Source: a virus (Duplodnaviria > Heunggongvirae > Uroviricota > Caudoviricetes). Taken from it: a stretch of DNA of 64,000 bases. The stretch lies in IMG/VR virus record IMGVR_UViG_3300045988_149737. One strand, 5' to 3'. The notes beneath the pieces are model-generated. The model was given only the letters and a program-made list of their open reading frames with translations, was not told the origin of the DNA and ran no database searches. Positions 52,262 to 52,824 of this stretch are shown in pieces (positions within the stretch are counted from its first letter, which is position 1; every line of letters starts with the position of its first letter). The position numbers and the translations under genes were made by a program.

Positions 52262-52740
52262 AAAGTGAATTGTAAGTGCTAAGATCTGATAGTTTCCAGT
52301 CGTAGACTGGAGACTCGACCTGATGGGTGGGGGATAGCGTCACTGGCGTCAGGTTTAAAAAAGCTCACTACCAGCGTAGAACCGGCACCGTTTAGGGGTT
52401 GGGGAAGGGGGAACCAAAGTGGGCAGAGAGAAGGGTCACTTTATGATTGTCGAGTCTGGAGTGTTTAGAGAGGTTGAATCCAGTGCTCCCCTTCATAAAG
52501 TGTGGGAAGATCTCGGTTCTGGGGTGCTGTCATCCATAACTTCCCAAGTCTAAGCTGGCAGTAGACTTAGGCCATAACTTTTCAGGTTATGAAACGACCA
52601 GGTTGGTGAGGGATTTTTATACTCACCTCCCTGGGAGAGTATTACCTGAAAAGACAACCTCTCACTTCGTTCGAGGTGAACTTCACTCACTTCGTTCGTT
52701 CAGTTCAGGTTTATAAAAACCTGTTCTGGGAAGTAATTTG
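52262..52740 (+). ncRNA. ORF-free structured region, candidate ncRNA or cis-element
   Basis: No ORF of 60 aa or more on either strand; nested stem-loops including a 35-bp imperfect hairpin 52576-52653; ends with CAGGTTTataaAAACCTG plus T-rich run. Confidence 0.35.
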
Positions 52741-52824
52741 TTTATTTTAATAATTATTAACACGCACGCGTGTGCGCACGCGCGAGGAAAAAAAATCGGC
52801 GCGGCGCTTGATTCAGGAGTTTAT

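Follow-up and report, generated by a model that had tools for sequence, protein, structure and literature searches.

Phage-plasmids of the SSU5 type occur widely in Enterobacteriaceae from clinical and animal sources and draw increasing attention as vehicles of resistance and defence genes. Here, we investigated a non-coding slot in a 64,000-nucleotide (nt) stretch of viral DNA (Caudoviricetes; IMG/VR virus record IMGVR_UViG_3300045988_149737), called the window throughout, that lies between a gene for a 76-amino-acid (aa) protein and rnhA, the gene for RNase HI (Table 1). The window belongs to an SSU5-like phage-plasmid: this region, flanks included, shares 97.8% identity with Escherichia phage Cyrano (pLF82, an SSU5-like phage-plasmid carried by E. 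coli LF82) and 90-93% with Salmonella phage SSU5 and with Klebsiella phage-plasmids. The slot sits among genes for a Dam methylase, small proteins, RNase H, and TerB, within what the Cyrano annotation identifies as a replication, recombination, and nucleotide-metabolism module. An initial annotation, made from the letters alone, had described it as highly structured and free of open reading frames (ORFs). Strong conservation, compensatory base changes on the + strand, and published transcription above both neighbours now bear out a structured, probably transcribed non-coding element, and we consider ~52292-52745 (+ strand) to be, very probably, a discrete and independently transcribed structured non-coding RNA gene of roughly 450 nt.

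Conservation, distribution and coding capacity

About 70 SSU5-like loci were gathered from IMG/VR via their RNase H protein and compared segment by segment. Positions 52314-52740 were 89-98% identical at the DNA level in SSU5, Klebsiella, and other main-clade lineages, against 73-81% identity to the window for the Dam methylase gene, the 76-aa gene, and rnhA of the same lineages. The edges of this conservation were sharp and alike in every lineage, falling at CTCGAC on the left and at GGGAAGTAA on the right, and conservation was far lower over the 74 bp on the left, which hold the promoter and first hairpin, and over the 84 bp on the right. Divergent members, found via the 76-aa protein and its contigs, comprise a distant clade (L249, L250, L251, L254, and L255, one of them a plasmid of Cronobacter sp. 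JZ38), whose RNA is ~68% identical to the window and thus no better conserved than its flanking genes, and an intermediate member (L252) at 82%, such that divergence of the RNA scales with lineage distance. One further lineage, L253 (Logan SRR8137545 contig), was discarded and left out of the conservation and covariation analyses because nearly every C reads T relative to its relatives, consistent with bisulfite-converted or deaminated reads.

The element was present in 687 PLSDB plasmids, mostly from Klebsiella (310), Escherichia (195), and Enterobacter (88), followed by Salmonella (49), Citrobacter (24), Cronobacter (10), and Shigella (7), with one each from Kluyvera, Raoultella, and an uncultured source and with Buttiauxella among the matches listed, and in 232 of 5426 complete E. 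coli genomes (~4%). A blastn search of those 5426 genomes, in which short antisense matches would fall below detection, returned phage-plasmids only, including one chromosomal record, so a host-derived sequence is rejected, the matches in E. coli genomes being the phage-plasmids themselves. Exact-motif scans of IMG/VR recovered SSU5-like contigs only, apart from nine extra 17-mer matches that we attribute to chance, and nhmmer searches with the core gave no match upstream of 80 chromosomal rnhA loci or in distant phage rnhA loci, by which a general association with RNase H genes is rejected as well. The RNA is specific to SSU5-type phage-plasmids of Enterobacteriaceae.

The slot is indeed free of ORFs at the threshold originally applied: no ORF of at least 60 aa occurs on either strand in 52240-52737 (the longest being 46 aa on the - strand and 44 aa on the + strand), and 52240-52824 contains no conserved ORF. 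A listed ORF at 52738..53418 is rnhA extended back to an upstream TTG, the real start being the ATG at 52825. Small genes do not tile the region either. The sole annotated small ORF is CYRAN_81, a 44-aa hypothetical protein of the Cyrano annotation that equals window positions 52419-52553 (135 nt), and in aligned translations its frame shifts after 15 codons in Klebsiella lineages and L114 and meets a stop after 15-16 codons in L150, L148, and L152, while the nucleotides downstream of these breaks stay invariant. There are 1- and 2-base indels at several further places in the region, and the CYRAN_81 peptide has no PHROG family. A small protein gene is therefore rejected, since the reading frame is not conserved among relatives, and the annotation of CYRAN_81 and its equivalents as protein should be corrected.

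The locus likewise matched no known RNA family. An Infernal scan of the whole window against Rfam 15, whose families include GOLLD, ROOL, OLE, raiA, HEARO, RNAI, 6S, RNase P, transfer-messenger RNA (tmRNA), and Y RNA, yielded at gathering score three tRNAs at 12.9-13.1 kb only; at E up to 10, positions 51800-53000 gave only chance hairpin matches to microRNA (miRNA) and hepatitis C virus models, far below gathering scores. ARAGORN called no tRNA or tmRNA in 52000-53000, no RefSeq annotation lay under the element among the matches listed in E. coli genomes, and full-text literature searches yielded no description of this RNA. With no Rfam family, RefSeq annotation, or literature description found, we regard the RNA family as new, the newness being that of the family and not of its mechanism. 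Three more specific identities were tried and rejected. First, a retron msr-msd would need a reverse transcriptase, and none is adjacent or annotated as bona fide in Cyrano 1-100000 (the Cyrano label 'Reverse Transcriptase 3' is, we presume, the name of an RNase H-like Pfam family). Second, a G-quadruplex is at odds with a fourth G-tract that varies (GUGGGC/GUGAGC) and covaries with its pairing partner. Third, GGA motifs, counted by eye, showed no enrichment of the kind expected for a CsrA-type sponge.

Table 1. Positions of the features at and around the non-coding slot, in window coordinates
Feature	Position	Strand	Details
Upstream 76-aa protein gene (also given as 76/84 aa)	52009..52239	+	phrog_5343, a label without function; stop codon at 52239
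Degenerate copy of the 18-bp palindrome (TAGGTAAGTnnTTACCTA family)	52240..52257		Right after the upstream stop codon; abuts the -35 hexamer
Sigma-70 extended -10 promoter	52257..52285	+	-35 TTCATA 52257-52262; 17-nt spacer ending in TGC 52277-52279; -10 TAAGAT 52280-52285
5'-terminal hairpin H1	52293..52313	+	9 bp, loop GUA
5' domain	52314..52433	+	H2 (52317-52353), H3, H4, purine tract
Helix H3	52363-52368 / 52419-52424	+	GCUCAC / GUGGGC; encloses hairpin H4
Conserved purine tract	52401-52419	+	GGGGAAGGGGGAACCAAAG; 5' domain
Central domain	52434..52593	+	Covariance model R1
Central-domain helices		+	CACUUUAUGA/UCAUAAAGUG; GAGUCUGG/CCAGUGCUC; UGGGAAG/CUUCCCA; GGGUG/CAUCC; GUCUAAGCUG/UAGACUUAGGC
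Local hairpin	52573-52578 / 52586-52591	+	CAUAAC / GUUAUG; central domain
Long imperfect hairpin	52578..52653	+	Outer stem CUUUUCAGGUUAUG/GUAUUACCUGAAAAG, middle CCAGG/CCUGG, inner GGUGAG/CUCACC
3' domain	52654..52736	+	Most conserved stretch ACAACCUCUCACUUCGUUCGAGG 52654-52676; invariant UUCUGGG 52724-52730
Hairpin CGAGGUGA/UCACUUCG	52672-52697	+	GAGG-GAAA-CCUC in the distant clade; tip lost in L252
3' hairpin	52700-52729	+	One UA to GC change
AT-rich spacer	52737..52760		Sequence variable, always AT-rich
Purine-pyrimidine tract and GC-rich hairpin	52761..52807	+	Tract 52761-52784; stem 52774-52785/52796-52807 with A-rich loop; just 5' of the rnhA ribosome-binding site
rnhA (RNase HI, 197 aa)	52825..53418	+	Ribosome-binding site AGGAG 52815-52819; Pfam RNase_H at residues 40-178, E = 7.5e-44
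Copies of the TAGGTAAGTnnTTACCTA palindrome	598, 5348, 12133, 17181, 19841, 26432, 31220, 33171, 36971, 41655, 46365, 51200, 52240, 53416, 58386

Promoter, base pairing and transcription

The promoter ahead of the RNA is conserved in its recognition elements. When the upstream 130 nt of eleven lineages were aligned alongside the window, the -35 (TTyAnn) and the TGnTAnnAT element were kept in every lineage while the sequence of the spacer varied; other lineages carry TTCAAA, TTTAAA, or TTTACN followed by TGN and TA(A/C/G)(A/G)AT, and the distant-clade promoter has the same layout (TTTACC-14-TGC-TAACAT). From this layout, transcription is predicted to start at ~52291-52293, 0-2 nt ahead of H1. 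This hairpin had been noticed as CCAGTC-gta-GACTGG at 52296-52310 and proved to extend to the 9 bp listed in Table 1. Its sequence differs in almost every lineage yet pairs always, with 4 of 7 scored pairs changed on both sides (CG/UA/AU/GC). Variable sequence with kept pairing is the pattern of a 5'-terminal stabilising stem-loop, and H1 is likely to be one. On the - strand nearby, a promoter scan found a sole site (52298 to 52269), which lies in the non-conserved promoter/H1 part and is directed away from the RNA.

Folding of the + strand alone gave -166.3 kcal/mol, compared with -141.1 +/- 7.4 kcal/mol for dinucleotide shuffles (z = -3.4; 0 of 100 as good). The - strand also beat its shuffles (z = -4.5), as expected for palindromic DNA; single-sequence folding thus cannot settle the matter, and the comparative evidence from conservation and covariation is the stronger. 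For 30 main-clade sequences, RNAalifold returned -149.6 kcal/mol, 135 pairs, and a covariation term of -5.3 on the + strand vs -120.4 kcal/mol, 118 pairs, and -2.6 on the - strand, and intermediate states in evolution form G-U pairs on the + strand but would leave C-A mismatches on the other. Main-clade positions were 99.4% paired, and 12 pairs had changed on both sides vs 7.7 +/- 1.4 in shuffles (none of 500 as many) and 1-4 in slid controls. The 3' two-thirds is mostly invariant in this clade and so uninformative there for or against structure. Once divergent members were included (14 sequences), RNAalifold found 33 of 102 pairs compensated. Further, a covariance model of the central domain (R1), to which 56 copies (34 distinct) were aligned, had 98% of its cells paired and 20 of its 52 pairs double-changed vs 6.7 +/- 1.7 in shuffles (again none of 500) and 2-6 in slid controls.

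Helix by helix, the divergent members carry such compensations. Within the 5' domain, where many G-U pairs are possible on the + strand only, H2 changes from CCUGA/UCAGG to GCAGA/UCUGC in divergent members, H3 changes from GCUCAC/GUGGGC to CCUGU/GCAGG in the distant clade and is shorter by one base per strand in L252, and the loop of H4 becomes a GAAA tetraloop in the distant clade, one of two hairpin loops in all to do so. The central-domain helix CACUUUAUGA/UCAUAAAGUG becomes CACUGUAGG/CCUACAGUG in divergent members, GUCUGG/CCAG... becomes ACCAGAC/GUCUGGU with the strands swapped, UGGGAAG/CUUCCCA becomes AGGAAGG/CCUUCCU through three double changes, and UCUAAG/CUUAGG becomes CCGGGA/UCUCGG. 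The long imperfect hairpin, which the initial annotation had also seen, changes in its outer stem from UUCAGG/CCUGAA to UUCUGG/CCAGAA in the distant clade (A-U to U-A) and has a paired C and G deletion there in L252; in its inner stem, GC is exchanged for AU and UA for CG.

Several helices have competing or more distant partners. The local hairpin and the outer stem of the long hairpin have overlapping strands and are mutually exclusive, and each has a compensatory change; similarly, GAGG (52673-52676) could pair with CCUC upstream or with CUUC/CCUC downstream, one alternative covarying and the other never varying. A candidate long-range helix joins GAGAGGUUG (52468-52476) and CAACCUCUC (52655-52663), which are the two most conserved stretches, are perfectly complementary, and carry one G-C to U-A compensation, in L252. 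The purine tract GAAGGGGG could be pseudoknotted with UCCCCUUC, a pairing with one double change to its credit. The long-range complement proposed at the outset, AGACTCGAC (52311-52319) with GTCGAGTCT (52449-52457), is present where described, as an inverted repeat of 14 nt that is 86% complementary, and the pairing remains unproven, if compatible with the data: CUCGAC/GUCGAG is 96% maintained via one-sided, wobble-compatible changes only (zero double changes), three of its pairs (half) overlap the covarying base of the first large hairpin, and GAGUCUGG pairs instead with CCAGUGCUC, with a strand-swap compensation in the distant clade. The direct repeat (C)TCACTTCGTTCG exists at 52661-52673 and 52686-52698 and is not conserved as a repeat, its second copy being the 3' strand of a hairpin for which the distant clade has GAGG-GAAA-CCUC. 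At the 3' end, the terminal hairpin described earlier was recovered and the T-run was less well placed, beginning ~7 nt past the hairpin; the AT-rich spacer that follows probably holds the 3' end of the RNA, or its termination zone. The 24-nt alternating purine-pyrimidine tract beyond it was confirmed, its alternating type is kept in most lineages, and the overlapping hairpin with its GAGG(A)AAAA loop is kept, with different stems, even where rnhA is replaced.

Published expression data place a transcript at this locus. In the Cyrano lysogen (strain LF82), CYRAN_81, inside the RNA, stood 12-fold above the prophage background vs 10-fold for the repressor (PMC9928086, Table 1), and its level was of the same order as that of the repressor gene CYRAN_45 in every condition (PMC9928086). 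The normalised counts of the same study (PMC9928086, S1 Table; MB6 is a sample label) were 117 in LB for CYRAN_81 (log2 LB 6.8 and 6.9; log2 MB6 10.3), 9.5 for the upstream gene CYRAN_80 (log2 LB 3.4 and 3.1; log2 MB6 ~5.1), and 8.4 for CYRAN_82, which is rnhA (log2 LB 2.6 and 3.4; log2 MB6 ~4.9). By these values the RNA region lies ~13-fold above the genes on both sides in LB, and expression drops from the RNA to rnhA by ~14-fold in LB and ~40-fold in one macrophage condition (PMC9928086). A count so far above both neighbours indicates that the RNA has its own start in the plasmid-prophage state and that most transcripts end before rnhA. Separately, the most expressed Cyrano feature by far, at 723-fold above background (PMC9928086), was CYRAN_43 (Cyrano 40268-40822, - strand), annotated as a hypothetical protein, whose equivalent in the window (~14550-15110) holds no long - strand ORF and a 202-aa ORF on the + strand.

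The downstream gene slot and the role of the RNA

The link to rnhA that the initial annotation implied is not obligatory. The RNA is kept in L221, where rnhA is replaced by a gene for an 822-aa TIR-domain protein, in L233, where an IS3-family element takes its place, in L232, where other genes do, and in L196 and L219, where two unrelated genes come after an rnhA that is cut after ~10 codons. Next to the RNA, the distant clade has a gene for a 200-aa unassigned protein or a Tad2-like (anti-Thoeris) gene, and in Cronobacter JZ38 the gap between the RNA and the following gene is ~200 nt. An RNA that persists while rnhA is replaced or truncated is not an rnhA leader, and a riboswitch or leader of rnhA is accordingly rejected, the association not being constant and the RNA being more conserved than rnhA in the main clade. 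Rather, the variety of genes 3' of the RNA marks the slot to its right as a cargo hotspot. Hotspot lineages at the rnhA position are L221, L232, L233, L196, L219, L249, and L254, and three hotspot contigs share a common junction, AATGTCTTCAATGTGCCAAAAGC, just ahead of differing cargo. The phage RNase HI itself has a Lys/Arg-rich N-terminal extension of ~39 residues (52825-52941) ahead of its RNase_H domain, and chromosomal rnhA genes align from ~residue 38 only.

In L256-L258, whose 76-aa protein is 70% identical, the same slot consists of 713 nt without a called gene (L256:2226-2937). In nhmmer and unfiltered covariance-model searches this segment did not resemble the RNA, and homology between the two is rejected on those negatives; it matched no Rfam family and no plasmid. 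It folds with z = -5.6 and is followed by a ~120-nt AT-rich tract and two tandem RNase H genes, possibly serving as an alternative RNA or as an origin-type element.

What the RNA does is less certain than that it is a gene. Provided that the gene is real, the mechanism we favour, although we would put it at slightly under an even chance, is that the RNA acts in trans as a folded molecule, most likely within a ribonucleoprotein or bound to a conserved partner from phage or host. The invariant segments (ACAACCUCUCACUUCGUUCGAGG, GGAUCUCGGUUCUGGGGU, the purine tract, and UUCUGGG) would provide the contacts, and the role would lie in the plasmid-prophage state, e.g., in maintenance, lysogeny control, or host interaction. 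The invariant loops and junctions of the main clade, together with GNRA loops and candidate long-range pairings, argue for tertiary structure or bound partners over simple antisense action. Consistent with this, an antisense regulator of phage genes is rejected, as complementarity of the RNA to Cyrano 1-100000 or to the window is none beyond 12-14 nt, i.e., at chance level.

Among known RNAs, the closest likeness in kind is to GOLLD, ROOL, OLE, and raiA. GOLLD and ROOL occur in association with phages and form large folded assemblies. Like this group, the RNA is hundreds of nt long, has many covarying helices and candidate long-range pairings, and shows GNRA tetraloops in some members. It likewise travels with a temperate phage under a promoter of its own, lacks coding potential, and has a function that cannot be read from its neighbours. 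It differs in having no match to these families, whether at gathering score or with E up to 10, and in occurring in Enterobacteriaceae, in one phage-plasmid family, and away from the tRNA cluster (39 kb). We raise, more tentatively still, the possibility that it is the founding member of a class of large, tertiary-folded RNAs (a ribonucleoprotein scaffold, a ligand-sensing RNA, or a ribozyme), a core gene of SSU5-type elements that would act in trans in the plasmid-prophage state on maintenance, replication, or host takeover. P1 c4 and P4 CI, immunity RNAs known from a plasmid prophage and a satellite, offer a second comparison, being likewise made by a plasmid or temperate element in lysogeny from a promoter beside regulatory sites. 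They are ~70-80 nt long and pair with nearby targets in their own operon, whereas the present RNA is ~450 nt with no complementary target found in the phage genome.

If the founding-class interpretation were true, this would be the first orphan RNA of the OLE/ROOL/GOLLD kind to come from the genetically tractable E. coli, Salmonella, and Klebsiella. Large structured orphan RNAs are rare and mostly occur in organisms that are hard to manipulate, and the presence of this one in E. coli LF82, Salmonella phage SSU5, and Klebsiella plasmids makes the role of such an RNA directly testable. It stands out among the genes around it, topping the surrounding replication genes in main-clade conservation and reaching repressor-level expression while having been left unannotated or called a 44-aa protein, and it forms the left edge of the hotspot at which RNase H, TIR, and anti-Thoeris genes are exchanged.

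Several points weigh against a discrete trans-acting RNA and are acknowledged here. Its expression is known as a per-coding-sequence count of a mis-annotated 135-nt ORF, which carries neither strand nor transcript length; both RNA ends are predictions, and a terminator scan called no intrinsic terminator at the 3' hairpin and T-run, so that no canonical terminator follows the RNA. The R1 alignment was fitted to its model, most helices of the 3' half are invariant in the main clade and draw their support from a few divergent sequences, and the compensations stem from effectively two or three independent lineages. Mutually exclusive conserved helices are a pattern more typical of a cis-acting switch. 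Finally, complementarity of the RNA within the phage is at chance level and points to no target.

A first rival explanation makes the RNA a pre-primer resembling ColE1 RNA II or an R-loop origin resembling T4 oriF. Here the transcript would stay hybridised to its template by the purine tract, phage or host RNase HI would cut it, and the cut end would prime the leading strand at the AT-rich stretch, giving the phage-plasmid a second, perhaps lytic, origin. RNA II of ColE1/pMB1 is, similarly, a plasmid-borne structured RNA of ~500 nt with a constitutive sigma-70 promoter, a G-rich segment, an RNase H connection, and a 5' end that is its most variable part; a ColE1 pre-primer of ~550 nt from a sigma-70 promoter is matched here by a promoter and ~450 nt, a feature that is generic and not family-specific. 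The size, promoter, and plasmid-state expression fit, as do the location in a replication and nucleotide-metabolism module directly 5' of RNase HI in most lineages, the G-rich 5' domain (GC skew +0.31) with its conserved purine tract, and the AT-rich segment that is always downstream of the RNA. At the same position, L256 has a structured but non-homologous segment, then a longer AT-rich tract and a pair of RNase H genes, and among the genes of the element are those for T4-like UvsY, gp32-like, and RecA-like recombination proteins, which suit T4-style replication. Against this, the RepA initiator gene lies 17 kb from the RNA in Cyrano, which places the plasmid replicon elsewhere, no antisense promoter of the RNA I type, which in ColE1 lies within the first ~110 nt of the pre-primer, was called inside the RNA and Rfam gave no RNAI match, the RNA survives loss of the phage rnhA, an R-loop origin has no need of elaborate covarying helices or GNRA loops, and the purine tract may itself be pseudoknot-paired. 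There is also no GC-skew inflection, which is weak evidence given that nearly all genes lie on one strand. On balance, we regard an origin as rather unlikely.

Clearly unlikely, too, is a cis-acting leader or attenuator, that is, a very large riboswitch-like element gating read-through into the downstream cargo gene on some signal. It would account for the two mutually exclusive helix pairs (the local and long hairpins both having comparative support), for a fall in expression past the RNA of the kind seen in terminated riboswitch leaders, for the lack of a boundary palindrome between the RNA and rnhA when one follows rnhA, and for the retention of the RNA and the A-rich-loop GC hairpin upstream of every replacement cargo. 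It would not account for a main-clade RNA much better conserved than the genes it supposedly controls, for downstream genes that are functionally unrelated, for a length (~430 nt) far above known leader sizes, for the lack of a predicted canonical terminator, or for the long gap between RNA and gene in Cronobacter JZ38.

A role in defence, anti-defence, or addiction, as a type III-like RNA antitoxin or as a decoy against superinfecting phages or host systems, we consider quite improbable. The arrangement recalls ToxIN, in which a promoter, the abundant non-coding RNA ToxI, an incomplete stop, and a protein gene follow one another with an RNA-to-messenger ratio of ~10:1; the adjoining slot collects TIR and Tad2-like genes, and lysogenic expression occurs alongside that of several Cyrano toxin-antitoxin genes. 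Nevertheless, the tandem ~34-36-nt repeats of ToxI are missing, there being only two 13-nt copies, 25 nt apart (also given as a 12-nt direct repeat), that are not conserved in the distant clade, and the downstream gene encodes RNase HI or variable cargo and never a ToxN/AbiQ-type endoribonuclease. The 76-aa protein, for its part, has no informative fold match and accompanies non-homologous sequence in L256.

Least probable is a DNA-level element or recent mosaic patch (a protein-binding region, recombination hotspot, or packaging-related site). In its favour are the long invariant stretches, which include predicted loops, the recombination hotspot in the adjacent slot, and the palindromic DNA motif flanking the unit; such an element is hard to reconcile with compensatory changes whose G-U intermediates are mismatched on the other strand, with conservation boundaries identical in all lineages and divergence that scales with lineage distance, and with a conserved promoter and transcript.

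Other features of the neighbourhood

The 76-aa gene lies directly 5' of the non-coding slot in every relative with upstream flank sequence. Its product has a three-helix AlphaFold model (predicted local distance difference test score 77.6), for which a Foldseek comparison with the PDB returned no informative match and nothing below E = 5; a Rop-like RNA binder is rejected on this model and this search.

The 18-bp palindrome with consensus TAGGTAAGTnnTTACCTA has ~15 copies in the window (30 strand-matches vs 3.3 expected), nearly always after a stop codon and ahead of the next gene or promoter, i.e., at gene or operon boundaries. One copy abuts the -35 of the RNA promoter, degenerate in the window and perfect in SSU5 and Klebsiella lineages, and another follows the rnhA stop. 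The palindrome looks like an operator, an operon-boundary signal, or an RNA-processing signal of the phage-plasmid.

Further upstream, 3' of the Dam methylase gene, positions 51824-51930 hold a 10-bp GC-containing stem, AGCCTGCTTC...GAAGCAGGCT, followed by TGTTTTGT, with an AT-rich loop of ~45 nt that is itself palindromic. This stem gave the best miRNA-model matches of the Rfam scan, spurious all the same, and is probably a terminator of unusual shape. A GATC (Dam) site at 52509-52512 within the invariant GGGAAGATCTCGG segment is kept in the distant clade, and a second, at 52283-52286, overlaps the -10 hexamer in the window's own lineage; the Dam methylase gene lies two positions upstream, and the proximity of these sites to it may be coincidence. 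The three tRNA genes of the window are clustered at 12902-13145 and are annotated as Asn, Thr, and Ser in Cyrano.

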